64,000 bases of DNA from an uncultured Thermotogae bacterium (GTDB taxonomy: Bacteria > Bipolaricaulota > Bipolaricaulia > UBA7950 > UBA9294). Position 1 is the stretch's first letter, and every line of letters begins with the position of its first letter. Below, one piece after another: positions 6,999-57,765 of this stretch. The translations under genes and the position numbers were made by a program. The stretch lies in assembly GCA_964550615.1 (NCBI GenBank), contig CAZKAB010000001.1, positions 76,786 to 140,785 on the forward strand. The letters are read 5' to 3'. The notes beneath the pieces were generated by a model, which was not told the DNA's origin, did not search any database, and worked only from the letters and a program-made list of their open reading frames with translations.

Positions 6999-7783
6999 GC
7001 CTTGCCGCGATAGATCTCTGTTACGCCTACACAAGCGACAGGCTGGTACTCGACGGCATCACGCTGTCCCTGGACGAGGGCGGAGTCACATTCATCTTGG
7101 GTGGGAACGGGAGTGGGAAGACAACGCTCCTTGAGTGCCTGTGTGGAATCCGCTCACCGCGATCGGGAAGTGTTCGTCTGGACGGAAAGGAAGCCCATCG
7201 ACTCCCTCCGATGCAGAGAGCGCGGCGCGTGGGGTTCGTTCCCCAGATTCATGAACCCATCTTCACCTACAGCGTCTACCATGTGGTGCTTATGGGGCGC
7301 TCCCCTCATCTCGGGCCGTTCGCGAAACCTCGCCACAGTGACCATGAAGCGGTAGCGCAAGCCCTCGATGCGCTCGATCTCTGGCCGCTGCGGAATCGTC
7401 CGTACACGGAGATCAGCGGAGGAGAACGACGATTGGTTCTAGTCGCGCGCGGATTGGCGCAAGGAGTACGCTATCTGCTGATGGACGAGCCGGACGCTCA
7501 CCTCGATCCGCTTCACCAAAACGACTTATTCAGCCGTGTGCGGGAACTTGCCATACAGGGCTTCACCTTCGCCATCAGTTCGCACAGTCCAAACAGCGCA
7601 CTCACCTACGGCGACTCGGCCCTTCTCCTCTCTCAAGGCAGACCGATCGCATACGACCGCGCTGCGGTGGTTGTCGCACCTGCGCCGCTGGCCGCGGCCT
7701 ACGGGCTTGAGTTTGAACTGATCTCAGATGAGAGCGGCCCCCGTGCGGTCCTGCCCATGAGAGCTACACGCACTCAGTCGTAG
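6995..7783 (+). CDS. ABC transporter ATP-binding protein (FepC/FecE-like)
   Basis: Walker A GGNGSGKTT, signature LSGGERR-like (ISGGERRLV) and Walker B LLMDEP. I prefer ATG 6995 (GAGGAGG 6 nt upstream), which forms an ATGA overlap with the permease stop (6995-6998). Confidence 0.9.
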   Translation: MSLAAIDLCYAYTSDRLVLDGITLSLDEGGVTFILGGNGSGKTTLLECLCGIRSPRSGSVRLDGKEAHRLPPMQRARRVGFVPQIHEPIFTYSVYHVVLMGRSPHLGPFAKPRHSDHEAVAQALDALDLWPLRNRPYTEISGGERRLVLVARGLAQGVRYLLMDEPDAHLDPLHQNDLFSRVRELAIQGFTFAISSHSPNSALTYGDSALLLSQGRPIAYDRAAVVVAPAPLAAAYGLEFELISDESGPRAVLPMRATRTQS

Positions 7784-8004
7784 GAACGCCACTTGCGGAA
7801 TATCCTGCCGCTCACGCCAATGCCGGCCCAGGCGAAAATCAGAGTCACTAAGAACCACAATCCGGCCGCCTGCCAATAGGACAGTGGCTTCAAGAGACCG
7901 AGATAGTTCACGATGATGCTGTTCCACAGCATCTGAATAATCCAACTGAAGAAAAAGAACGCCCCTACGCCGCCGCCGGTTATCAATCCTCGCACCAGCT
8001 TCAT
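7774..8004 (-). CDS. Small two-TM membrane protein, unknown function
   Basis: ORF 7774..8025. The start at ATG 8004 has GGGGGA 7 nt upstream. It has two hydrophobic helices (GVGAFFFFSWIIQMLW; AAGLWFLVTLIFAWAGIGV). No family recognised. Confidence 0.4.
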   Translation of the reverse strand: MKLVRGLITGGGVGAFFFFSWIIQMLWNSIIVNYLGLLKPLSYWQAAGLWFLVTLIFAWAGIGVSGRIFRKWRSYD

Positions 8005-8110
8005 CCAATCATCCCCCTTGCACAAGAATATCGGAATTGTACCGACTAAAGCTCGAAAAATGAACAGACCGTAGCTATTACGGCGGATATCATCGGATTC
8101 ATCTGACAGG

Positions 8111-9346
8111 CTAGATATCCCAGTCTATTCGCGGTGTAGGCAGCGACAGAACGCGATCCAGCTTCGCCAATAGCGCAGGCGGAGCTGAAAGCGCATCCGT
8201 CCAGGCAATTCCACTTGCCGGCTGCACGCCGAGCCACATGCGGGTGAATGCACCGGCAGACGCTGTCATTGTTGGAAGGGCAGAGTCCCTCCCGGGCTCG
8301 GCTTGTGATGACGAGCCAAGACTGACTATGTAATCGCCGCCGATCCCACGCCACGTGCTCTTGTCGTCCAGGAAGCGCTCGATCGGGTCTTCAATGGCGA
8401 GGTTGAAGCGCACCGTCTCTTTTGTTGCAAGGCGAGTATCCGCGAGCGCCGATGATAGGTCCAATAGCCGCGCCTGCCAGTAGGCGGCGCACGTCATGCG
8501 GCTTGCGTGCCCCGATTGCTTTGTGATCCGCCTTGACTTGAACGGGTGCACGAGCAGATCCTGCAGCTGAATCCCACCCGGCTCGTAGAGCTTCACGGAG
8601 TGGACTTGATCGCCCAGACTTTTCACTAGTGCCAGCAGTTCAACAAGATGCTCCTTCGAACGGTACGACATCCACGAAACGTTGTACGGACCATGCTCTA
8701 CTTCCTTTGTGGTGCACCACAAGTGATGAGTAAGCTCCTCGCCATGCTCATCCTCATATCCGAGCCCGAAACCGTTGTCGCTCCAAAGCATTTCGGCCTT
8801 CGTCATCAATGGCGAACAGACGGAGCAGGCCCCATGCGAACGCGTACGACACAGCCGTGAGCGGTGTATCCTTTCCCAGTCGTCATTTCCGAGACGCACC
8901 GGCACGCGGGGACGCACATCGACGGCGAGATCGGCTGGATCGAAGGTAAGCCAGCGCTCATAGGCGCCGTTCCCGAACCCAAGCTGGTTATAGTATCCCT
9001 GGTCGAAGATGCCGAGTAAGGCCACCTTAATTCCATCCGCAGCTTCGCGCGCCAGTGCATGCGCGACAAGACGCCCCGCAATACCTTGCTTGCGCGCTAT
9101 CCTGCTTGTGGTTACTCCCCCGATACATGCAACATCGACATCGTGGTCGAGATAGCGCATGGAGCCTTTCATTGAGTTTACCATGCATTCAGCGATGCCA
9201 TTCACCTCTGCGACCACGGTGCGGCTCGATTCGATCACGGCGGCAAGCGCCTGTTCGTGCTCTTTCTTCTCCAGCCATCCGACTTCGCGCCAAATGCGTT
9301 TGACAGGCTCCGCATCGCGTTTTTCATCGTATTCGCGAAACGTCAT
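8111..9346 (-). CDS. GNAT acetyltransferase, Eis-like three-domain architecture
   Basis: About 410 aa, which is the Eis size class. The GNAT core has the motif RKQGIAGRLVAHAL. The start at ATG 9346 has GAGGAG upstream. Family-level call only. Confidence 0.7.
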   Translation of the reverse strand: MTFREYDEKRDAEPVKRIWREVGWLEKKEHEQALAAVIESSRTVVAEVNGIAECMVNSMKGSMRYLDHDVDVACIGGVTTSRIARKQGIAGRLVAHALAREAADGIKVALLGIFDQGYYNQLGFGNGAYERWLTFDPADLAVDVRPRVPVRLGNDDWERIHRSRLCRTRSHGACSVCSPLMTKAEMLWSDNGFGLGYEDEHGEELTHHLWCTTKEVEHGPYNVSWMSYRSKEHLVELLALVKSLGDQVHSVKLYEPGGIQLQDLLVHPFKSRRITKQSGHASRMTCAAYWQARLLDLSSALADTRLATKETVRFNLAIEDPIERFLDDKSTWRGIGGDYIVSLGSSSQAEPGRDSALPTMTASAGAFTRMWLGVQPASGIAWTDALSAPPALLAKLDRVLSLPTPRIDWDI

Positions 9347-47550: not shown

Positions 47551-48450
47551 TTGGAGACAAGCAGATTGAACCGACAACGTTTGTTTCTCGTCGTGGTGCT
47601 CGTTGCCTTGTTTGCGGGCCTCTTCGTCCTCATCGGCGGCATAAACAGCTTCCAGCCCCTGCCCGGCAAGCGCCTCCCCAATCCATTCGCCGCTTTGCGA
47701 AACCGAGCCACCGAACTCGAGCCTGATGAATCGGTCTTCGGAGCGGACGCAATTGTCCGCCTCATTCAGGCACTGTTCGTTCTAGGAGCTGCGGTCATTC
47801 TGTTAAACCTTATCATATCGCGTCGGTTTCGTAAGCAGCTGGCATTGATACTCGTGCTGCTACTGTTGGGCACATTCGTGATTTCTCATATCAAGATCCC
47901 CGACAGAGGCAACTCATCTCTTGCCGCCAGCTCAGGCGGACCCAGCTCGTCAGTCTCGAGTGACGAACCGCGGCCCGAGATCCCGCCTGCTTCTGCCTCT
48001 AATTGGTTTGTTATCCTGATCGCGGCGGTTTCCTCCATTATCGTCGCCGGACTCGCGTTGCTGTTCTATCTCAACGTGTATCCAGCGATGCGCAAACGCC
48101 GCGTGACAGAAGAGACGATCCTCGACAAACTCGGCAAACAAGCAGGACAGGCAATAAGACGGATACTGGACGGCGACGATCCGCGTGCCGCCATCCTGAG
48201 GTGTTACCAGGAAATGAGTACAATCATGAGCCGGGCCGAGCGCCTTCCCAACTTCTCTTATTTCACGCCACGTGAATTCGCGTCACACCTACGCCTTCGT
48301 GGCATGAAGGATGAACATGTCGACCGTCTCACCGCGATCTTCGAGGCTGTCAGGTACGGCGGACGAAGCGGCTCGGGATTCGTTAATGAGGCCCTTGCTT
48401 GCCTTCAGTCAATCCAGCTTACGTACGCCACCGACGAGGAGAGACTGTGA
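47551..48450 (+). CDS. Membrane protein with a C-terminal DUF4129-like domain
   Basis: It has N-terminal and central TM helices. The C-terminal segment ILRCYQEMSTIMSRAERLPNFSYFTPREFASHLRLRG...LTAIFEAVRYGG matches the DUF4129 pattern (TPrE...Y..aRYg). The start is uncertain: TTG 47551, or TTG 47566 with GGAGA upstream. Confidence 0.6.
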   Translation: METSRLNRQRLFLVVVLVALFAGLFVLIGGINSFQPLPGKRLPNPFAALRNRATELEPDESVFGADAIVRLIQALFVLGAAVILLNLIISRRFRKQLALILVLLLLGTFVISHIKIPDRGNSSLAASSGGPSSSVSSDEPRPEIPPASASNWFVILIAAVSSIIVAGLALLFYLNVYPAMRKRRVTEETILDKLGKQAGQAIRRILDGDDPRAAILRCYQEMSTIMSRAERLPNFSYFTPREFASHLRLRGMKDEHVDRLTAIFEAVRYGGRSGSGFVNEALACLQSIQLTYATDEERL

Positions 48451-49034
48451 ATCGGAAGACGGCCATATTGCTAATTGCAGGCGGAGTGCTGATAGCGATC
48501 GGTCTTTCACTCGCGTTCGCGTTCCCACTGCGAGATGCGTTTCGTGCCGCCGTGGCCGAGCCATTCATTTCCTCATTCTATTTGTTCCGCTGGTACCTCC
48601 ATCGTATATCGCAGGCCGTGCTGTGGGGAACGTTTGTCCTCCTTGGAGGCTTCTTGCTTGCGAGGTCGTTTGCAGGAGCGTTTCCGTCGCGAAGGAAGGA
48701 ATACCAAGGGCGCATCCGCGCCGCAACTGAGCCTGTAAGCGAACTAGATCGGCTCGCAACGATAATCGGTCATACTCATCGGCGCCCATTTGCACGCAGG
48801 CGGATGGCGGTTGAACTTTCCCGACTCGCGATCCGGATGATCGCAAAGAGAGAAGGGATATCTCTCAAGGAAGCAAGAACAAGGTTCGAGTCATTCGACT
48901 GGTGTAGTGACGGGGCAATTGCCGATTTCTTCTCGTACAGACGCCAGTACCACGGACTAAGAAGAGGAAGGGACTTCTCAATGTTGCTGCACAAGACAGT
49001 CTCATTTCTCGAACGCTACTATCAGGGGGTCTAG
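48447..49034 (+). CDS. Membrane protein of unknown function in the MoxR operon
   Basis: ORF 48399..49034. I prefer GTG 48447 (VNRKTAILLIAGGVLIAIGL), which forms a GTGA overlap with the upstream stop. It has two or three TM helices and then a basic helical tail. No family recognised. Confidence 0.5.
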   Translation: MNRKTAILLIAGGVLIAIGLSLAFAFPLRDAFRAAVAEPFISSFYLFRWYLHRISQAVLWGTFVLLGGFLLARSFAGAFPSRRKEYQGRIRAATEPVSELDRLATIIGHTHRRPFARRRMAVELSRLAIRMIAKREGISLKEARTRFESFDWCSDGAIADFFSYRRQYHGLRRGRDFSMLLHKTVSFLERYYQGV

Positions 49035-49985
49035 ATGGAACTTACGGAAGTAGGCGCGCGCAGTCACGCAATCGTCGATGAGGTTGCAAAGGCAATCGTC
49101 GGAAAGGAAGACGTACTGAAACAGGTCATGGTCGGAATCCTTGCCGGTGCGCACATCCTGTTCGAAGACTATCCCGGACTGGCAAAGACGATGATAGCCC
49201 GCAGTTTCGCACAAGTACTCGGCCTCGATTTCAAAAGGATTCAGTTCACGCCAGATCTGTTACCGAGCGACATCACCGGTTCACACGTCTTCGACCGCGA
49301 GAAGGAGGAATTCACCCTCACCGTCGGACCGGTGTTCGCCAATGTCGTGCTGGCGGACGAAATCAATCGAGCGACGCCGAAGACACAGTCGGCGTTGCTC
49401 GAAGCGATGCAAGAGGCGCAGGTCACGATCGATGGTGACACGCACCGCCTTCCCACACCATTCATCGTCATCGCGACGCAGAACCCGATCGAATACGAAG
49501 GAACGTTTCCTCTTCCCGAAGCACAACTCGACCGTTTCATGATTCGCCTTTCGGTCGGTTACCCGGATAGAGAAGGAGAGGTTGAGATACTGCGGCGGCG
49601 GCGCGCGCGTAAGACTGACGATATCGATCTTGTTCCTATCATCGATGCTGCCGTGCTGCAACGGATGAAGACAGCTGTGGAAGAGGTATTCGTCGACCCC
49701 GACATAGAGGAATATATCGTCTCTATCATTAGCAAGACCCGCTCCGATAGCAACGTGTATGTCGGCGCGAGTCCGCGCGGTTCGCTCGCATTGCTGAAAC
49801 TTGCGCGCGCCCAGGCTGCACTGGAAGGACGTGACTACGTTCTCCCCGACGACGTCAAGATGTTCGCTGTACCGGCATTGGCCCATCGCATGATTCTCAG
49901 TCCGGAGCTGTGGTCGAAACGGATTGCACCCGCCGACGTCGTGCAGAAGATCCTACGGCTGGTACCTGTTCCCAAGGTCGATTGA
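49035..49985 (+). CDS. MoxR-family AAA+ ATPase
   Basis: 316 aa with the motifs IVGKEDVLKQVMVGILAGAHILFEDYPGLAKT (Walker A variant), VLADEINRA (Walker B) and LLEAMQE...IATQNP, which are typical of MoxR. The ATG follows the upstream stop directly. Confidence 0.9.
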   Translation: MELTEVGARSHAIVDEVAKAIVGKEDVLKQVMVGILAGAHILFEDYPGLAKTMIARSFAQVLGLDFKRIQFTPDLLPSDITGSHVFDREKEEFTLTVGPVFANVVLADEINRATPKTQSALLEAMQEAQVTIDGDTHRLPTPFIVIATQNPIEYEGTFPLPEAQLDRFMIRLSVGYPDREGEVEILRRRRARKTDDIDLVPIIDAAVLQRMKTAVEEVFVDPDIEEYIVSIISKTRSDSNVYVGASPRGSLALLKLARAQAALEGRDYVLPDDVKMFAVPALAHRMILSPELWSKRIAPADVVQKILRLVPVPKVD

Positions 49986-49986
49986 C

Positions 49987-51270
49987 GTGTCCACTCTCAG
50001 GCGGCTGAACATCACCATCGGCATCGCAATCGCAATGGCGCTTGTGGGCGTGCTCATACGTGACGGCCGCGTCCTCGCCATGTCGCTGCCGTTCCTTGCT
50101 TACGCCGGGCTGATGTTGTTCAAGTCACTCGATCGCCGCGGGCTCAAGTTGGAGATCGATCGTTCTCTCAGTTCCGAACGGATTGTCGAAGGAGAAACGA
50201 TCGACGTCACACTCTCTGTCATAAATCGTGGGGCATCTGTCCGTAATGTCTGTGTTTCAGATCGCATACCGAAAGGAGCTGCGATAGCCGGTGGAGAAGC
50301 GTCCACTCTCGTGTACCTAAAGACGAACGATTGCGTAACACTCTCCTATCGGCTCACAGCGCAGCGCGGCGAGTACAGCCTCCCTGGGGTCGATGCTACA
50401 TCGTGGCGTCGATCACTCTTGGCCCCTCAGGTTCAATTCTTCAGACGTGAAACGAACTTTCTCGTCGTTCCAGTCGCCGAGCCAATCTCCGATGTCGAGA
50501 TTCGACCGCAGCAGACGCGCGCCTATGCCGGAATCGTGCGCGCAAACCAAGGGGGTAGTGGCATTGATTTCTTTGGATGCCACGCCTACACCACCGGAGA
50601 CGATATTCGCCGGATCAACTGGCGCGCGTATGCCCGCACCGGCGAGTTGATCGTGAACGAGTACGAACAAGAGAGAATCGCCGATGTTACAGTATTCCTC
50701 GACGCTCGCGCAGGCGCGAACCCGCGCGTAGGCAAAGAGGACACCTTCACCCACGCCGTTCGCGCCGCTGCAAGCGTAAGCAAACACTTCATCGGCCAAG
50801 GAAATTGCGTCGGACTTCTCATCTACGGGGACTATCTCAACTGGGCATTCCCCAACTACGGCAAGATACAGCTTGCTCGCATCCTCGATTCCCTCGCACG
50901 AGCAGAGCCTGCAGACAAGGAAGTATTCGACGATCTCCGTTCCGTGCCGACGCGTCTCTTTCCCCCCCGTTCACAGCTTGTGATGGTAAGCTCGATTCCC
51001 AACATGAGGGACATCGAGGTGATCGGTGTACTGCGTGCCCGCGGGTATCGTATCATGATCGTCGTCCCCGACTTGCTCGCGTATCAGCTGGAAGATGTTC
51101 CATCGGGAGCGGATCGCGATCTCGCTCTGCGCGTGCTCACACTGAGGCGCCGGTTACTGTTGGATACGTTGGCAAGGATCGGGATACAGGTCGTGTTGTG
51201 GGACGTGACGAAGCCTCTATCCGCTTCCTTTGGTTGGTCATCATCACGACGGGGAAGGAGGTCGGCATGA
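49987..51270 (+). CDS. DUF58 domain-containing protein (vWA-like fold, MoxR partner) with N-terminal TM helices
   Basis: ORF 49924..51270. I prefer GTG 49987, 1 nt after the moxR stop. It carries the DUF58 signature YTTGDDIRRINWRAYARTGELIVNEYEQER..VTVFLDA. Confidence 0.8.
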   Translation: MSTLRRLNITIGIAIAMALVGVLIRDGRVLAMSLPFLAYAGLMLFKSLDRRGLKLEIDRSLSSERIVEGETIDVTLSVINRGASVRNVCVSDRIPKGAAIAGGEASTLVYLKTNDCVTLSYRLTAQRGEYSLPGVDATSWRRSLLAPQVQFFRRETNFLVVPVAEPISDVEIRPQQTRAYAGIVRANQGGSGIDFFGCHAYTTGDDIRRINWRAYARTGELIVNEYEQERIADVTVFLDARAGANPRVGKEDTFTHAVRAAASVSKHFIGQGNCVGLLIYGDYLNWAFPNYGKIQLARILDSLARAEPADKEVFDDLRSVPTRLFPPRSQLVMVSSIPNMRDIEVIGVLRARGYRIMIVVPDLLAYQLEDVPSGADRDLALRVLTLRRRLLLDTLARIGIQVVLWDVTKPLSASFGWSSSRRGRRSA

Positions 51271-51845
51271 GGACAGCCGCGCTTGTATGTGCCGCCATTA
51301 CCTGCGCTATCCTTGCCGAAAGCGGGTTCTCCCTCGGATCTATACCCTTAGGTGGAGCGGCGGTTGCTCTCGCCGCGGCATGGGCGATCATTCTGTGGAG
51401 CAACGCTTTCGCGGGGCTGCTGTCGTTTCTCCTCATCATGGAAACGTTACTTGCAGCAATCAATGTCCTGTATGGGACATCGGCCTATGTAGGAGGAGCC
51501 GTGGTCGTGCTTGCGCTCGTCTCTTGGGAGCTCGCACTCGCAATCGAGCCGCTTACCTCGTTGCCGAAGGAGAAGGTGCGTGCGCTTGTATATCGCCATA
51601 TCACACAGATGCTTATCGTCGCCATGGGCGGGTATGCGCTGTTTGCAATCCCGCTACAACTTAGTCTGCATCTGGATTTCCGCGTCGCTCTCGGACTCGG
51701 GCTCTTCATATTCTTGTTGTTTGGCCTATTGCTGCGCCATCTCGTCGACCGCAGGGCACGCATCCGAAACGGGCGCCTCGTACCGCTCGTTAGAGGATGG
51801 AACGCACTGAAGGCAGCGCTGGCAAAGAAAAACGGGCGACCCTAG
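51267..51845 (+). CDS. Polytopic membrane protein (192 aa), unknown function, last gene of the MoxR operon
   Basis: This is the C-terminal part of ORF 50577..51845. ATG 51267 forms an ATGA overlap with the DUF58 stop and has GGAAGGAGG upstream. There are five to six hydrophobic helices. The upstream part of the long ORF is an Arg-rich out-of-frame shadow of the DUF58 gene. Confidence 0.6.
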   Translation: MRTAALVCAAITCAILAESGFSLGSIPLGGAAVALAAAWAIILWSNAFAGLLSFLLIMETLLAAINVLYGTSAYVGGAVVVLALVSWELALAIEPLTSLPKEKVRALVYRHITQMLIVAMGGYALFAIPLQLSLHLDFRVALGLGLFIFLLFGLLLRHLVDRRARIRNGRLVPLVRGWNALKAALAKKNGRP

Positions 51846-51878: not shown

Positions 51879-52562
51879 TCACTGCCCGATATCCAGATCC
51901 CCGCAAACAGAGGTCTTCACGCGCGACTCCGCGTAACCGCTCACCGCACCCGCCAGATGCGGAGAACCGCTTCCCCGCGAGGGGTAGAGTCGATACGTAA
52001 CCGTCCAAGAATCTCCGACCTCAATCGGACTCATCCACAATATCTGCAGATCCTGGCCTTCTTTCTTTGTCACCGCATTGGCAGCATCGAGAATCTCCCA
52101 CTGCCAACCGATAGGCACCGTCTCTTCCAGTCCGACGGCGCTAACTTCGCTACGAGCGCTGACAGTTACTTGCACAAGGATTGACCCGCTCTCATCCGGT
52201 GCAACGTCTCGCACCGCGAACAATGGAGACTCGCCTACGAGCATCCCCTTGCGGCAGGTGGCATAACGTCCGCCACCTTCGTCGACCCGCAGGGTGACCG
52301 CAACAAATCCCGGCTCCGAAAATGCATGTTCGATTATCGGTTCGGTCGTTGACACTTCGTACGTTCCGTCGCCGTCGAAGTCCCAATTGTAACTCACGGC
52401 ATCGTAGGAAAGACAGGTCTGGCACACAGTAAACGTGATATCTTCCCCAACCGCTGGGTTGTAGGTCGTCGGGGCGAAGTTCGCCGTTCCAGCGAGCACC
52501 GCCACTTCGGCGACCATCACCAGGATGAGGAACAACACAAGTCCCTTCATTCTGTTATTCAT
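51879..52562 (-). CDS. Secreted PKD-domain protein with one copy of the GW module (227 aa)
   Basis: It has a signal-peptide-like N-terminus and a PKD motif (SYNWDFDGDGTYE...VTLRV). This is followed by ILVQVTVSARSEVSAVGLEETVPIGWQWE...WTVTYRLYPS, shared with the two upstream proteins. Confidence 0.7.
   Translation of the reverse strand: MNNRMKGLVLFLILVMVAEVAVLAGTANFAPTTYNPAVGEDITFTVCQTCLSYDAVSYNWDFDGDGTYEVSTTEPIIEHAFSEPGFVAVTLRVDEGGGRYATCRKGMLVGESPLFAVRDVAPDESGSILVQVTVSARSEVSAVGLEETVPIGWQWEILDAANAVTKKEGQDLQILWMSPIEVGDSWTVTYRLYPSRGSGSPHLAGAVSGYAESRVKTSVCGDLDIGQ
51978..52181 (-). repeat. GW module copy (227-aa protein)
   Basis: Peptide: ILVQVTVSARSEVSAVGLEETVPIGWQWEILDAANAVTKKEGQDLQILWMSPIEVGDSWTVTYRLYPS. 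Confidence 0.6.
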
Positions 52563-52598: not shown

Positions 52599-54776
52599 CT
52601 AAGGGAGCGGTTCGTGCACCGAGGTATTGGTAAGCCAATAGGCAACCAGATCCCGAATCTGATCGAGAGTGATCTTGTTGTTGTCTGTCGGCGTGTACGT
52701 AACGGGATTACCGTTCAGCCACAGCGATACGGCGTACTGAATCTGATCGAACGATATCTGATCAGGCAGACAAAGAACGATCTTCTCCTGATCGACATCC
52801 CAGCGAGAGATGACAACCTTGATCGGAAGCGTAGGAGCAAAGACTATTTTGTCCTCTCCAAGCACCATGCGTGACAGCCGTGGAGACGAACTCTGAACGA
52901 TCCCGTTGATTGAGACCTCAGTCTTGTCAGGCGGAGTACTGGGCGCGGTGAGCGAATAGGTGATCACCCGCGTATCCCCGTCTCTGAGCGTCTCCATAAA
53001 CAGCCAGTCATAGCCTTGTGCATTATCTCCGCTTCCCTTGTGCAATGTCGCACTGGCGTTGTCGCCGGCAGCGAACGTCCATCCGGCCGGGACATCCTCG
53101 TGCAACGTAAGCCCGTTCACCGTAGTGTTGGCCGTTATCGTCAGTGTAACCGTCACCGTCCCTGCGGCAATCGTCTTGTCTCCAGGCAAACACGTGTCAA
53201 TCGTCCGCACTGCACTGACGCTCGGGAGTACGGTCAACGACTTCCTCACAACTGCGCTTGCTCCCTCATCATCGGTAACCTTCAGTGCGACGCTTGTCTC
53301 GCCGGCGACGGCGAACACATGATCGATATCAGACGAGGCGGTCTCGGCATCGTACTGCCCATCTCCGTCGAAATCCCACGCATAGGAGACAATATGTCCG
53401 TCGATATCGTTCGAGCCACTGGCGTCAAACGTGGTTGTAACGGCGACTCGAGGCTTGTCCGGTGTCAGTCTGAACACGGCCATTGGGCCGGTGTTCTTCA
53501 CCCGAATGACCTGTGTGACGGAATCCGACTTGTAGCCATCATTGTCCGTAACGACGAGCGTCACAGAGTAGCTGCCGCTGTGGGCGTAGCTGTGGGTTGG
53601 ATTCTGATCGGCGCTCGTGTCGCCGTCACCAAACGCCCATGCCCACGCGACCACTTGTCCGTCCTTGTCGCTCGATCGATCGCTGAACGTCACCATGTCC
53701 GTCGTACTTGGAATAGCCGGGACATAATCGAACGCGGCAATCGGCGGAGCGGGAGGAGCGGGAGGCACTATTGCGTGAAGCGTCACGCTTGGGATGCCTA
53801 TCGTGTTCTTCACTCCGCGGAAATCAGTGTATGTGACGGTCGACCCTTGATCCGTATTCAACGTCCCAGCGCTGATCGCCTTCAATGTGATTGCGGCACT
53901 CCACTCTTCATCGAGAGAGATCGAGGCGATCTGCCAGATTAGGGTCGTCGTCCGGTCGGGATTGGAGACGATGCGCGTCGGTGCCGGATCGGCGCTTACG
54001 TACTGAACACTGCTCGGCAGCGTTTTCCTAACCGTCACGACAGTTCCGGCCGTCTTCACAGAAATCAGCTGGTTTATCTGGTCAACTACGGAATCGGTCG
54101 CCCTCTTGAAGAACCGCCCATTCGTATCCGTTGCGAGCTGTTCCAATAGATTGCTGTCGATCAGATTACCGATTCCAACCGGGATGATCCTTATTCCCGC
54201 TTCACTGGCAATGTCGCCCTCGCCCTGCGGGTCACGCCCGGAGTTGTTCTGCCCGTCGGTCATCAGAATCTCCACCAAGATCGCATTTGGGCGTCCGCGC
54301 GCCAGTAGCTCCTGCCGCGCAAGCTGCAATGCGTCACCAAACGCGGATTTCCCGCCCGTGTTGAGATCGGCTATCGCCGTCTTCATCTTCAGGCGATCGG
54401 CAGTGAGCGGTACCGCGAGCTGTGCAGTGGTGGAGAATGTAACGAGTCCGATCTGGTCCTGATCGGAGAATGAGTTCATCAGATCAAACGCCAGTTGTCT
54501 TGCGATATCTATCTGGGCGGTTGCCGAGACGTCGATGACGAACACGTAATCAATCGGGAAGCGTGCCTCCGGCCCGGCACCATCCAACGCAAGACTGACC
54601 ACAGACGTATCCGGCGATCCGGTCCCTGCAACGTAGATCTGTTGAGGGCTGATCTGCTGCTCCACCTGAAGATTCGCCCCTACCCCCAGCACCTGGATAC
54701 CGATGAGCAGGACGGCCAACAAAAGGACGGCGAGGGGTCCCCCCCTCGCCGCAACTCGTTCACTTCTTTTCATCAT
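52599..54776 (-). CDS. Secreted von Willebrand factor A protein with two PKD domains, one GW module and a C-terminal twin-helix module
   Basis: ORF 52599..54797. The start is ATG 54776 or 54773 (AGGAGG at 54784-54779). The VWA domain has a MIDAS-like DVSAT, GGKSAFG and LMTDGQNN. The PKD motifs are WAFGDGDTS and WDFDGDGQYD. An N-terminal hydrophobic segment is present. Confidence 0.8.
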   Translation of the reverse strand: MMKRSERVAARGGPLAVLLLAVLLIGIQVLGVGANLQVEQQISPQQIYVAGTGSPDTSVVSLALDGAGPEARFPIDYVFVIDVSATAQIDIARQLAFDLMNSFSDQDQIGLVTFSTTAQLAVPLTADRLKMKTAIADLNTGGKSAFGDALQLARQELLARGRPNAILVEILMTDGQNNSGRDPQGEGDIASEAGIRIIPVGIGNLIDSNLLEQLATDTNGRFFKRATDSVVDQINQLISVKTAGTVVTVRKTLPSSVQYVSADPAPTRIVSNPDRTTTLIWQIASISLDEEWSAAITLKAISAGTLNTDQGSTVTYTDFRGVKNTIGIPSVTLHAIVPPAPPAPPIAAFDYVPAIPSTTDMVTFSDRSSDKDGQVVAWAWAFGDGDTSADQNPTHSYAHSGSYSVTLVVTDNDGYKSDSVTQVIRVKNTGPMAVFRLTPDKPRVAVTTTFDASGSNDIDGHIVSYAWDFDGDGQYDAETASSDIDHVFAVAGETSVALKVTDDEGASAVVRKSLTVLPSVSAVRTIDTCLPGDKTIAAGTVTVTLTITANTTVNGLTLHEDVPAGWTFAAGDNASATLHKGSGDNAQGYDWLFMETLRDGDTRVITYSLTAPSTPPDKTEVSINGIVQSSSPRLSRMVLGEDKIVFAPTLPIKVVISRWDVDQEKIVLCLPDQISFDQIQYAVSLWLNGNPVTYTPTDNNKITLDQIRDLVAYWLTNTSVHEPLP
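52602..52817 (-). repeat. Twin-helix module, C-terminus of the VWA protein
   Basis: Peptide: VVISRWDVDQEKIVLCLPDQISFDQIQYAVSLWLNGNPVTYTPTDNNKITLDQIRDLVAYWLTNTSVHEPLP. Confidence 0.65.
52938..53162 (-). repeat. GW module copy (VWA protein)
   Basis: Peptide: GTVTVTLTITANTTVNGLTLHEDVPAGWTFAAGDNASATLHKGSGDNAQGYDWLFMETLRDGDTRVITYSLTAPS. Confidence 0.55.
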
Positions 54777-54798
54777 CTCCTCCTTAGGTGACCACAAA

Positions 54799-57015
54799 CT
54801 AGCCGCACGGTGGGGTGGTTTCGTCGCAAGTACCCGGCACCGATCCTGGCAACGGAGAACAGATGTTTGTGTTGGTCAGCCAGTAGGCGATGATCGTCTT
54901 CAGTGTCTCATAGGTAACCGTCTGCCCACAGGTACGTGGAACAACTTCGTCTTCCAGCCAGAACGCAATTGCACGCTGCACCTGCTGGAATGAGATCTTA
55001 TCGGAGAGTGTGATGTCGATAGTATCGTTCTCTACATCCCACCGTGAGATCGCCACCAACACTGAAACGCAGTCGGCTACTGCTACCGAGTCATCCCCGG
55101 TCACTTGAGTGTTCTGGCAAGGCAGGGCGGAGTCGACGGTCCCCTGCAAATCAGTGCTGCTCACGTAACACGGATCGCTTCCTGTCGTCTCGATCGCTTG
55201 TGTTTGCGGCACTTCAACCTGATAGATGATCGTCTTCGTCGTTCCAACTCCTAACTTGCTGGGGAAGACCCATTCCACTTGTGATCGCTTGTAAAGGAAC
55301 CCGTCGTTCTCGACCGGAGTAACTCTCCATCCGGTGGGGAGCTCTTCCTTGAGCCCAACTCCGTACAGATCTTGATCGGCACTGATCTCCACCTTGACGG
55401 TGAACGTGTTGCCGGCCGGGTTGCCGTCGGGACCATAGTAGTTAAGCAAGATGTTCCCGCATGGGACCGGTGTGGCGATAGTACGAACGGCAGTGATATT
55501 CGCCTGCGGAACCGCTGGCAGATCAACGTCGACCGGTGTACAAGTGTATGCGTACGCAGCGATGTCTTTCATCGCTTCCAGGTCGATCGTCGCTCCTTGC
55601 GTCCAGGGCACCGTTTCCTCGTTCTGCCACATCTCAAGAGCACGAGTGAGCTGATCGGGCATGATCTTCTGTGACAAGCGCAGATCGATCGTGTCGTCAC
55701 TGTCTTCGCCAACACGCGGAACAAGATGCGCGATTGCGGTCTTCAACGGTAGCGCATCGGTTATCTCTATCGTTGAATCACCCTCCACAGGCAGTTCGAA
55801 TGCAGGGGTTCGCGCTTGGAATATGCCGGTGATGTCGAAACATACAGGAAGGGTGGTGGCGATCAGTTCGTTGCTGGACGGCACGGTTACTTCGTAAGAA
55901 ATGACCTTGCTTGTGCCGGCCTTGATCTCATCTATGAATACCCATTGCACTGCCGCCCGTTTGAAAGCTGCGCCAGCGTTTTCCAGCGGCTTTATCTTCC
56001 AACCGACCGGGAGCTTCTCTTCCAACCCGACGCCGGCAAGATCCATTTGGGGCTCGATACGGACGACCACTTTGAACGTGGTCCCCGGAAGCGCCGCGAT
56101 TGTTGAGATCGTACGTGTGACCTTAACCGCTAGGTCGGCTACGTTGACGGACACCGAAGTCCGGGCTGTCGCTCCTGCGGCATCGGTCGCTCGAAGTGTC
56201 ACGTTCTTCATCCCGCTGACCGCGTAGCTGTGCGTGACAACAGGATTGGTGGTCGTCTGATCGAATATACCGTCGCCGTCAAAGTCCCACTCGTACTTGG
56301 CAATACTGCCATCCGGGTCCATCGAGGCGCTGGCATCGAACGAGATCGCCTCGTTGATGTGCGGATCGGTGGGGGAGATGCTGAACGACACCTTGGGTGG
56401 CTGGTTCAGCGTCCCCTGGAAAATGATCGGATCGATCAGGTTCAGGCTCACCATTTGCGGTGAAGAAGCGCTGCCGGACGGGAGTTTGACCGCCGTGATC
56501 CCGGCGGTGAACTGTGGATACAGAGTCAACTCAAACTCGGAGCCGAGCGGTCCCAGGACCATACCGTCTGATTTTCCATCGTCCCACGTCCACGAGACAC
56601 TACCCGTGGGGGGAGTGAGTTGCCACACCTCACGGAAATCGGCCGGGCCGTCGTCCTGAACGGTAAAGCCCGCTCCGGCCGGTACACCGGACATGGTCAA
56701 GGACGTTGACCCCGCCGTTCCGCCCGTGCCACTTAGCAAGACGAACAATGACACCGCACCTGTTGTCGTGTTGCGATACAGGAACAGCACCGCGGTATTC
56801 GTCTCCTCCAAGCCCGTGTTCGACTGGTTGTTCGTCATGTTGTAGTAAGCATCGGCGGCCGTCGAACCCGAAAGCGGGACTATCTGTACCCGCTTATCCC
56901 CTTGGCTGACCGTGTAGTACCCTGACTCCTGGGCAAGTACACTCGCCGGGAAGAGGAGGGTGCCGAGTACCAAGAGGAGGAAAAGGCCATAAAGGCTAGC
57001 CTTATACACCTTCAT
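54799..57015 (-). CDS. Secreted 738-aa protein: unknown N-domain, PKD domain, then two tandem (GW module + twin-helix module) units
   Basis: It has a signal peptide (MKVYKASLYGLFLLLVLGTLLFPASVLAQE) and a PKD motif (YEWDFDGDGIFD). An internal duplication is detailed in the findings. GGAGG SD upstream. The stop lies 22 nt before the next gene's start. Confidence 0.75.
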   Translation of the reverse strand: MKVYKASLYGLFLLLVLGTLLFPASVLAQESGYYTVSQGDKRVQIVPLSGSTAADAYYNMTNNQSNTGLEETNTAVLFLYRNTTTGAVSLFVLLSGTGGTAGSTSLTMSGVPAGAGFTVQDDGPADFREVWQLTPPTGSVSWTWDDGKSDGMVLGPLGSEFELTLYPQFTAGITAVKLPSGSASSPQMVSLNLIDPIIFQGTLNQPPKVSFSISPTDPHINEAISFDASASMDPDGSIAKYEWDFDGDGIFDQTTTNPVVTHSYAVSGMKNVTLRATDAAGATARTSVSVNVADLAVKVTRTISTIAALPGTTFKVVVRIEPQMDLAGVGLEEKLPVGWKIKPLENAGAAFKRAAVQWVFIDEIKAGTSKVISYEVTVPSSNELIATTLPVCFDITGIFQARTPAFELPVEGDSTIEITDALPLKTAIAHLVPRVGEDSDDTIDLRLSQKIMPDQLTRALEMWQNEETVPWTQGATIDLEAMKDIAAYAYTCTPVDVDLPAVPQANITAVRTIATPVPCGNILLNYYGPDGNPAGNTFTVKVEISADQDLYGVGLKEELPTGWRVTPVENDGFLYKRSQVEWVFPSKLGVGTTKTIIYQVEVPQTQAIETTGSDPCYVSSTDLQGTVDSALPCQNTQVTGDDSVAVADCVSVLVAISRWDVENDTIDITLSDKISFQQVQRAIAFWLEDEVVPRTCGQTVTYETLKTIIAYWLTNTNICSPLPGSVPGTCDETTPPCG
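54844..55059 (-). repeat. Twin-helix module, C-terminal copy in the 738-aa protein
   Basis: Peptide: LVAISRWDVENDTIDITLSDKISFQQVQRAIAFWLEDEVVPRTCGQTVTYETLKTIIAYWLTNTNICSPLPG. Confidence 0.65.
55204..55407 (-). repeat. GW module copy 2 (738-aa protein)
   Basis: Peptide: TFTVKVEISADQDLYGVGLKEELPTGWRVTPVENDGFLYKRSQVEWVFPSKLGVGTTKTIIYQVEVPQ. Confidence 0.65.
55525..55743 (-). repeat. Twin-helix module, internal (more divergent) copy in the 738-aa protein
   Basis: Peptide: KTAIAHLVPRVGEDSDDTIDLRLSQKIMPDQLTRALEMWQNEETVPWTQGATIDLEAMKDIAAYAYTCTPVDV. Confidence 0.55.
55876..56079 (-). repeat. GW module copy 1 (738-aa protein)
   Basis: Peptide: TFKVVVRIEPQMDLAGVGLEEKLPVGWKIKPLENAGAAFKRAAVQWVFIDEIKAGTSKVISYEVTVPS. 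Confidence 0.65.
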
Positions 57016-57135: not shown

Positions 57136-57765
57136 TCATAATGAAACCGCCAGTTGATAGAGCGCCGCGTCGATCGCCTTCTTCGCTGCTTCTAGTGGAT
57201 CGGCCGTCAACAGCGACAAGAGAGGCTTATCTTCGTTCGTAACCGTCGTCGTAAACTCTATGTCGCCAGAAGGGTTGAACACCGTTGCGAAAACGCTCAC
57301 CGTCGCCTGTTTGTCAAGTCCGAACAGAAGCCCTAGCGGACTGGTGAGAAGTTGCATCGAGTTATCCAAGAACGAGCTTACCCCAAGGAACAACAAGGAA
57401 CGTTCGGGTCTAAAAGCGATATTGGTATCCCATCGAACGATTCGAAACACAATGAGGTGATCCGCGTCCAGCGTTTGAGCAAGTCTTCGCATTCCTTCAA
57501 GCGGGACAGTGTTTCCGATGTAGGTGTTTGTGAGACGCTGTGCGTACATCAACTCGCCAGCGGATGCGACCGTCGTGCCGGTGATAATGGCACAATGTTG
57601 GTTGGCGTAGCTCTTGAGGATCTCCAGTTGCGATGCCGGAATAGGCACCGCCGCCTGTACAAAGACGGCCACCTTCTCTCGCTGGCCGAATACCGGGACA
57701 ACAGCCGTCAGGCTGACCAGTAGGATAACAAATCCGTACAGCGCAAGACGTAGTTTACTCAACAT
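57136..57765 (-). CDS. Secreted or anchored protein of unknown function (209 aa), first gene of the surface-protein operon
   Basis: It has an N-terminal hydrophobic signal/anchor (MLSKLRLALYGFVILLVSLTAVVPVFG), and GGGGAG lies upstream of the ATG. The alternating alpha/beta-like pattern gives no family I can name. Confidence 0.5.
   Translation of the reverse strand: MLSKLRLALYGFVILLVSLTAVVPVFGQREKVAVFVQAAVPIPASQLEILKSYANQHCAIITGTTVASAGELMYAQRLTNTYIGNTVPLEGMRRLAQTLDADHLIVFRIVRWDTNIAFRPERSLLFLGVSSFLDNSMQLLTSPLGLLFGLDKQATVSVFATVFNPSGDIEFTTTVTNEDKPLLSLLTADPLEAAKKAIDAALYQLAVSL

Follow-up and report, generated by a model that had tools for sequence, protein, structure and literature searches.

A duplicated loop-helix module in Bipolaricaulota surface-type proteins, with the layout of a dockerin and without its calcium chemistry

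Introduction

What is a small domain with the layout of a dockerin doing in proteins whose copies of it hold no calcium loops? The question is raised by two adjacent genes in a 64 kb stretch of contig CAZKAB010000001.1 (the window, that is, the whole stretch of DNA analyzed), which comes from an uncultured bacterium of the Bipolaricaulota lineage. One encodes a 738-aa protein (54799-57015, minus strand) and the other a 732-aa BatA-like protein with a VWA domain (52599-54797, minus strand), and together they carry three copies, 75-90 aa long, of the same helical segment, here called the module.

Dockerins have about 70 residues made of two tandem loop-helix repeats of ∼22-24 residues each (the “F-hand” duplication), and they are typically found at the C-terminus of secreted multidomain enzymes. 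A first reading of the window, made from the sequence only, had noticed that the module shares this organization and had suggested a different kind of docking device. The analysis described here leads to the following answer: the module is an unannotated domain family that has the layout of dockerins and EF-hands, does so without the calcium chemistry, and has a different partner. No description of this module or of its locus was found in the literature.

Three copies of one module

Where does the module begin and end, and how often does it occur? One copy, also matched by a hidden Markov model (HMM), closes the VWA protein (52602-52844, minus strand; aa ∼652-732), a second lies at the C-terminus of the 738-aa protein (54832-55089, minus strand; aa 643-728), and the third is internal to the latter (55501-55764, minus strand; aa 418-505). 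A six-frame HMM scan of the window finds exactly these three. Their similarity, claimed by the sequence-only reading for three segments at these same positions, was confirmed when the modules alone were compared by BLASTP: the two C-terminal copies match each other at E 8e-21 with 41% identity, the two copies of the 738-aa protein at E 2e-14, and its internal copy matches that of the VWA protein at E 1e-7. The details reported earlier are also there, namely the strings ISRWDV-x4-I and WLTNT-x4-PLP, and two helix signatures per copy (ISFDQIQYAVSLWL/ITLDQIRDLVAYWL and others) with gaps of 14, 12, and 12 residues.

The module starts ∼10 residues before ISRWDV, with a short helix that reads “LPIKVVIS”, “VSVLVAIS”, or “LKTAIAHL”. 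At its other end, the VWA protein terminates exactly at ...SVHEPLP, and its orthologues stop at the same point (...SVHDPLP). In the 738-aa protein, the C-terminal module is followed by a short, poorly conserved tail that contains Cys (54802-54831), and the internal copy has a 5-residue insertion in its hairpin. When whole proteins are compared by BLASTP, the repeated unit becomes longer, and it consists of an immunoglobulin-like (Ig-like) sandwich with an LPxGW motif and then the helical module; such a sandwich directly precedes each of the three copies. As for known families, Pfam and NCBIfam give no match on the module down to E <= 10, for the proteins and the isolated modules alike, and three profiles find no significant sequence match in the PDB.

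A confident fold built from a duplication

Modeled alone with AlphaFold2 (AF2), from a 60-sequence alignment spanning several phyla, the module has a predicted local distance difference test score (pLDDT) of 92.1 and a predicted template modeling score (pTM) of 0.80. In the model of the full 738-aa protein, based on a 45-orthologue alignment and with a mean pLDDT of 87, both modules score ∼88-97. In the AF2 secondary structure, a helix of 6 residues and a beta hairpin come first, followed by a 12-residue helix and, after a loop, by a last helix of 12-13 residues; the helices fall at aa 652-657, 676-687, and 702-713 in the C-terminal copy of the 738-aa protein, and at aa 424-429, 453-464, and 479-491 in the internal one. 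The predicted architecture is a short entering helix, a hairpin, and a loop-helix unit that occurs twice in tandem, with 12 residues each for the loop and the helix. Aligned against each other with hhalign, the two halves match with a probability of 96% (E 4.5e-9, 22 columns). The internal duplication proposed earlier is well founded, and judging from the sequences of the two loop-helix halves it is an ancient one.

Does this fold resemble any that has already been described? Foldseek returns three PDB matches at E <= 10 for the module model, none of them significant, and nothing significant in BFVD; with the full-length model it finds only generic multi-Ig proteins (integrins, complement, PrgB), which are uninformative for the module. 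With no significant match in Pfam, NCBIfam, PDB sequences, or Foldseek, the original statement that this is not a named domain still stands.

The conservation of the module is also instructive. Across 120 orthologues of the 738-aa protein, no part is more conserved than the C-terminal module, whose entropy is 0.48 bits compared to 1.07-1.09 for the N-terminal and PKD domains; the modules and the preceding sandwiches are similarly conserved (0.48-0.67 bits). In helix h1 (QVQRAIAFWLED) almost all positions are invariant or nearly so in these orthologues, including the polar and charged ones, and the pattern suggests that the invariant residues (face QVQRAIAFWLEDE) are exposed. Three aromatic residues of the module are conserved as well: W44, Y69, and W70 in the numbering of the model. 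The confident fold and the conservation rule out a low-complexity linker.

A last structural hint comes from the cysteines. In 23 short-form relatives, two Cys, one located 2 residues before the first helix and the other 2 residues past the last, occur together in 6 proteins and are both missing in 17, and there are no mixed cases. This paired presence or absence indicates that the termini of the module are probably close together and can be stapled by a disulfide, as in a plug-in knob. Collectively, the module is an autonomous domain of ∼75-85 residues, carried by secreted surface-type proteins and outside any family described so far.

How close is the module to EF-hands and dockerins?

In its layout, the module comes close to both. 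Like an EF-hand pair (PF13499/PS00018), it has a helix, a 12-residue loop, and a helix, twice. Like the dockerins of types I and II (PF00404), it has ∼70 residues in two tandem loop-helix repeats, it typically stands at the C-terminus of secreted multidomain proteins, and its chain ends are probably near each other, given the Cys covariation. The dockerin-like layout described in the sequence-only reading was recovered here as two tandem loop-helix repeats in ∼75 aa, in multidomain proteins with N-terminal signal-like segments.

The loops are more telling. In an alignment of 187 module instances, position 1 of loop 1 is Asp in 128/161 (80%), position 8 is Ile, Val, or Leu in 185/186 (99%), position 12 is Gln in 146 (78%) and Glu in 40 (Gln or Glu in 186 of the 187), and position 13 is hydrophobic (I/L/V/M) in 173/187. 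Loop 2 is as long as loop 1 and follows the pattern P-x-T-x-G-x-x-I. Read in this way, loop 1 fits the geometry and register of an EF-hand in which Glu12, the key bidentate residue, is mostly swapped for Gln. In the window, loop 1 (DITLSDKISFQQ, VLCLPDQISFDQ, DLRLSQKIMPDQ) has Gln at position 12 and unconserved residues at positions 3 and 5, the VWA copy has lost D1 as well, and loop 2 (PRTCGQTVTYET, TYTDNNKITLDQ, PWTQGATIDLEA) has P-x-T-x-G and no acidic ligands. The claim that these copies have no calcium loops is correct.

Family searches also point towards EF-hands, always under the family thresholds. PROSITE PS00018 matches none of the three window copies, and it is matched in register by four relatives that keep a canonical calcium loop, P0113, P0152, P0284, and a 210-aa protein of locus L084 (DANDNGQLETDEV, DQNNNNKLELVEI, DADDDGTIEDDEI, DINGNDRIDDNEI). 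The nine best PDB sequence matches of the profile are all EF-hands of ALG-2, aligned in the loop register and subthreshold (E 0.2-0.5). Several relatives have subthreshold Pfam matches to EF-hand_6, _7, _1, and _5, the best of which (EF-hand_7 at E 0.0013 and EF-hand_6 at E 0.0031) are below the cut-offs. On the window copies there is no Pfam EF-hand or dockerin match even at E <= 10, and Dockerin_1 (PF00404) matches neither the proteins, nor the isolated modules at E <= 10, nor 27 short-form relatives. With hhalign, the probability is 0.2% against one bona fide dockerin sequence, and the comparison with calmodulin is too weak to count. The top Foldseek match in the PDB is the CipA type II X-dockerin 5g5d_B, and it is insignificant (E 9.9, probability 0.03, TM 0.29, 53 columns); no EF-hand structure is found among the matches at E <= 10.

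There are differences as well. The tandem repeats of ∼22-24 residues that mark a dockerin are present, whereas the calcium loop D-x-[DN]-x-[DN]-G-x-x-x-x-x-D is missing in the window copies, which have no DxNxDG; the module has an additional N-terminal helix and hairpin; and the locus has no cohesin. The beta domain that accompanies the module is Ig-like and not a cohesin jelly roll. Cohesin (PF00963) has no match in the 738-aa protein, the VWA protein, or the 227-aa protein encoded beside them. Compared with an EF-hand pair, DSSP places hairpins inside each loop of the module model instead of the usual loop-to-loop bridge, and the module is found in secreted surface-type proteins, often disulfide-stapled.

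Formally, the module is outside the dockerin and EF-hand families. Where did it come from? The register of its loops suggests that it probably descended from a helix-loop-helix pair of the EF-hand/dockerin type whose calcium ligands were lost. The likeness may reflect such an ancestry, which is plausible as far as sequence comparison can tell.

Two other likenesses deserve mention. Relative P0114 (291 aa) consists of three repeats of the HdeA family (Pfam HdeA, E 5e-36), and the module profile matches it with E 1.3e-6 for the whole library; hhalign aligns the module profiles A5 and A4 with its repeats at 67% and 58% (E 5e-5 and 1e-4) over 42-44 columns. HdeA, HdeB, and YmgD (PF06411) are, like the module, small all-helical periplasmic or extracellular units with Cys near both ends, whereas the likeness is limited to the h1-loop-h2 part and has no structural counterpart. 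Pfam HdeA has no match on the window modules or on the 27 short-form relatives at E <= 10, and on these alignments the module may possibly be linked, at a distance, to HdeA/YmgD. The second case is DUF3717 (PF12512), matched by 13 of the 27 short-form relatives (best E 6.6e-6): the first 18 positions of its profile resemble the start of h1, “ISLxEIQxAINxW”. The model has 68 positions, of which only this 18-residue motif is matched; it has no match on the window copies, and the protein context is different.

The beta-sandwich that accompanies the module

If there is no cohesin, what is the domain that precedes the module? It is here labeled GW, after the conserved Gly-Trp of its LPxGW motif, and the window has four such domains, from which a GW HMM was built. 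In the 738-aa protein, GW sandwich 1 (55762-56136, minus strand; aa 294-418; GLEEKLPVGWK), which is all-beta in the AF2 model and is matched by the GW HMM, stands immediately before the internal module, and GW sandwich 2 (55081-55503, minus strand; aa 505-645; GLKEELPTGWR) immediately before the C-terminal one. That of the VWA protein (52842-53222, minus strand; aa 526-652; HEDVPAGWT) is likewise immediately before its module. The fourth (51882-52262, minus strand) belongs to the 227-aa protein, which has a PKD domain and GW and no module, here as in all 80 related loci.

Pfam DUF11 matches GW sandwich 1 with 31.8 bits, above its cut-off of 24.6 bits, and the VWA protein with 23.7 bits, slightly under it; NPCBM_assoc/NEW3 is above its cut-off on the GW of relatives P0103 and P0113. 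According to these Pfam matches, GW is a CARDB/DUF11/NEW3-like Ig sandwich. The same DUF11 and NEW3 matches rule out a Listeria-type GW module: the GW modules of Listeria and Staphylococcus are SH3-like wall anchors, and they have only the name, which the sequence-only reading had used, in common with the domain described here.

How faithful is this partnership? Among 131 representative proteins that bear the module, the GW HMM finds the sandwich in 100, usually immediately before the module and at times after it, often in an alternating G-M-G(-M) arrangement (G for GW, M for module). In the full-length AF2 model, the GW-module-GW junctions have a pLDDT of 94-96, with no dip.

Distribution and company

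The story is not limited to one genome. A pattern scan with one genome per GTDB species found a close relative in 136 species, and 80 loci were listed. Most of these 80 are labeled Bipolaricaulota or Acetothermia, and about 30 carry other labels (“uncultured Thermotogae”, “uncultured bacterium”). The gene row is conserved in all of them: a [GW-M-GW-M] protein, usually followed by a [GW-M] protein, and then a [GW] protein, which always lacks the module. The 738-aa protein has 291 homologues at E <= 1e-5, and the 120 listed share 66-100% identity. The VWA protein is absent, with [GW-M-GW-M] directly before [GW], in L062-L066, L069-L073, and L076-L080, which are Bipolaricaulaceae-like, and in L067, L068, and L075. 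This reduction in divergent lineages makes the 738-aa/227-aa pair the conserved core of the row.

Beyond these loci, when 1.84 billion representative proteins were searched exhaustively with HMMER, only 135 clusters came up at E <= 1e-3, and 76 of them at E <= 1e-10. Most of the 135 belong to Bipolaricaulota. The profile was biased to this phylum, so that the short-form branch may be larger than these counts. Orthologues of the 738-aa and VWA proteins make up the stronger matches. Those that are weaker cover only the h1-loop-h2 core, “ISLxEIQxAIxxWxxGxxVPxTGGxxIxLxxIQxLIxxW”, and include acidic proteins (one assigned to Halobellus limi), proteins of Chloroflexota and Aerophobetes, and proteins with tails of the type IX secretion system (T9SS). 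The sequence-only reading was prepared to give way to a confident match with a domain of unrelated function, to a module with no stable fold of its own, or to a family confined to this genome; what was found is a confident independent fold, homologues in several phyla, and no confident match of that kind.

With whom does the module travel? All of the relatives that could be judged are signal-bearing, multidomain proteins of surface type, and the partner domains are S8 peptidases, polysaccharide deacetylase, PKD, CARDB, PQQ propeller, VWA, and T9SS tails. A true cohesin and a true dockerin stand beside the module in one relative. In P0087, P0130, and the 210-aa protein of L084, the module is seen without GW, in tandem, or as the sole recognizable domain. 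A role as C-terminal sorting signal is ruled out by the internal copy of the window and by the separate sorting domain that follows the module in T9SS relatives.

Some of the distant loci merit a closer look. In two unrelated lineages, a GW-only gene lies near a module-bearing gene: it directly adjoins it in L083 (7591-8556, plus strand) and is found two genes downstream of it in L082 (6760-9564, plus strand). The module is borne here by a polysaccharide deacetylase and an S8 peptidase, and the arrangement recalls that of the window, with its GW-only 227-aa protein. In L084, the gene of the 210-aa protein (7690-8322, plus strand) is immediately downstream of that of P0103, a T9SS protein with a dockerin, a cohesin, and a module-GW-module array. 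The 210-aa protein has an N-terminal signal-like segment, and all that can be recognized in it is a C-terminal module, whose canonical EF-hand/dockerin-like loop, DINGNDRIDDNE, resembles that of a dockerin.

What could the module do?

The most intriguing question is that of function. A possible answer, offered tentatively and from sequence evidence, is that the module acts as a calcium-independent protein-protein clamp, with the GW sandwich as its partner. The module would hold GW sandwiches together within a chain, and would probably do the same across the co-encoded 738-aa [GW-M-GW-M], VWA [GW-M], and 227-aa [GW only] proteins; the result would be a conserved complex at the envelope surface of Bipolaricaulota for which calcium is not needed. 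An interaction role is plausible in view of the conservation, the near-invariant h1, the autonomy and close termini of the module, its partner company, and the co-encoded GW-only and module-only proteins. Its set of partners (S8 peptidases, polysaccharide deacetylase, VWA, PKD, and T9SS tails) resembles the company kept by dockerins.

Several observations weigh against this answer. GW and module almost always come fused in one chain, and the high pLDDT across the junctions fits a rigid in-chain arrangement equally well. Adjacent genes can come to share domains by tandem duplication and not through interaction. In addition, Foldseek shows no significant likeness to any dockerin or EF-hand structure, all EF-hand signals in the sequences are under the family thresholds, GW is an Ig-like CARDB/DUF11 sandwich and not a cohesin, and there is the rival, weak likeness to the HdeA-family repeat.

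Could the module be simply a structural element of its own chain? As a cap or connector, it would pack on its flanking GW and stiffen a rod-like stalk, with no partner in another protein. This is about as likely as the clamp, or slightly less so, and it would account for the GW that directly precedes every window copy, for its presence, mostly adjacent, in 100/131 relatives with G-M-G-M alternation, for the junctions with no dip (pLDDT 94-96), and for the nearly equal conservation of GW and module (0.48-0.67 bits). It is harder to reconcile with modules that occur without GW, in tandem, or alone (P0087, P0130, and the L084 210-aa protein), with the Cys covariation, which suggests a knob with adjacent termini and not an in-line spacer, and with h1 positions that are invariant or nearly so even when polar. 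The GW-only protein is also always co-encoded, and it tells us that GW folds without needing the module. Would the module rather hold on to something other than a protein? An anchor to a glycan, to peptidoglycan, or to a lipid of the toga-like sheath, similar to the small C-terminal wall-binding modules, would explain the C-terminal position in secreted enzymes and adhesin-like proteins, and would suit the conserved W44, Y69, and W70 and the unusual toga-like envelope of Bipolaricaulota with its S-layer. Nevertheless, it appears improbable: the module has no likeness to any known wall-binding module, the family occurs with very different envelopes, those of Bipolaricaulota, T9SS diderms, and haloarchaea among them, the window has one internal copy, and T9SS proteins have a separate sorting domain after the module.

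Two explanations remain. As a working EF-hand, sensing calcium or another metal or stabilized by it, the module would owe to this role the length and register of its loop, D1 in 80% of the instances, the PS00018 matches of four relatives, and the name of EF-hand protein that the Joint Genome Institute (JGI) gave to one relative. For the window copies this is most improbable, because loop 1 has Gln12 and unconserved positions 3 and 5, the VWA copy is without D1, loop 2 is without acidic ligands, and no EF-hand or dockerin family of Pfam matches even at E <= 10. Scarcely better are the prospects of a remote kinship with the HdeA/HdeB/YmgD proteins, that is, disulfide-stapled periplasmic helical proteins, in which case the EF-hand-like features would be convergent. 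The module profile does match P0114 (E 1.3e-6; hhalign 58-67%, E 5e-5 to 1e-4), and in both groups a Cys precedes the first helix and another follows the last. However, the library E-value adds up three repeats of ∼18 bits each, Pfam HdeA matches neither the window copies nor the 27 short-form members (E <= 10), and no HdeA, HdeB, or YmgD structure is among the Foldseek matches.

Returning to the clamp, a broader version of it can be imagined, in which module and GW form a calcium-independent docking pair, a functional analogue of dockerin and cohesin derived from an EF-hand-type ancestor. The 738-aa, VWA, and 227-aa proteins would be joined in trans by this pair, as a phylum-wide envelope complex that is possibly part of the toga or S-layer, and haloarchaea, Chloroflexota, Aerophobetes, and T9SS bacteria would have put the pair to new use, with peptidases and other enzymes displayed on their surface. 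Taken as a whole, this scenario is unlikely.

Why does it matter? Should the module prove to be a docking device, it would represent a second, calcium-free answer to the problem that the dockerin-cohesin pair solves, with an Ig-like partner; it would bear on how surfaces are built in little-studied phyla; and it could offer a small orthogonal tag for protein assembly. Regardless of docking, there is a compact, confidently folding, and apparently unannotated family with a clear partner domain, and a four-gene locus, conserved throughout the phylum and adjoining a MoxR/DUF58 system, that is directly testable.

The gene row and its surroundings

The row has four genes on the minus strand, and all four proteins (209, 738, 732, and 227 aa) have a hydrophobic, signal-like N-terminus. 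It opens with the gene of the 209-aa protein (57136-57765, minus strand), in which no Pfam family is found beyond its N-terminal signal-like segment; this gene heads the row in most of the 80 related loci. The 738-aa protein follows, with a signal peptide, an unannotated beta-rich N-terminal domain, PKD, and then GW, module, GW, and module (Pfam: PKD and DUF11). The VWA protein has an N-terminal signal or anchor, VWA, a DUF11-like domain, two PKD domains, GW, and the module, the first three of these domain types being recognized by Pfam. The gene of the 227-aa protein (51879-52562, minus strand) closes the conserved row with a signal or anchor, PKD (the Pfam match), and GW only.

What lies around the row? 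On one side it is flanked by IleRS-PurA-RplM, and on the other by a convergent DUF4129-DUF7269-MoxR-DUF58 operon. This Bat-like operon (47551-51845, plus strand) encodes DUF4129, DUF7269, a MoxR AAA+ ATPase (49035-49985), DUF58 (49924-51270), and a small membrane protein, and the arrangement is syntenic in most of the related Bipolaricaulota loci. The presence of a BatA-like VWA protein next to it suggests that the two form one functional system.

The Bipolaricaulota have an atypical envelope (PMC6092417), and the first cultured strain of the phylum has a toga-like sheath with a hexagonal S-layer whose composition is not stated (bioRxiv 10.1101/2025.11.21.689855). Given such an envelope, a row of surface proteins that is conserved across the phylum may be regarded as a reasonable candidate for one of its components.

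Two minor points complete the description. The beta-rich N-terminal domain of the 738-aa protein (56416-56925, minus strand; aa 31-200) is modeled by AF2 with a pLDDT of ∼79-95 and has no Pfam or NCBIfam match; the distant relative P0150 has a similar N-terminal region. As for the start of the VWA protein, the listed open reading frame begins with TTG, one base past the stop codon of the 738-aa gene (54779-54801, minus strand), and an in-frame ATG (MMKRSE...) is available six codons further down, as a second candidate for the true start. Whichever of the two holds, the 738-aa and VWA genes are tightly packed.

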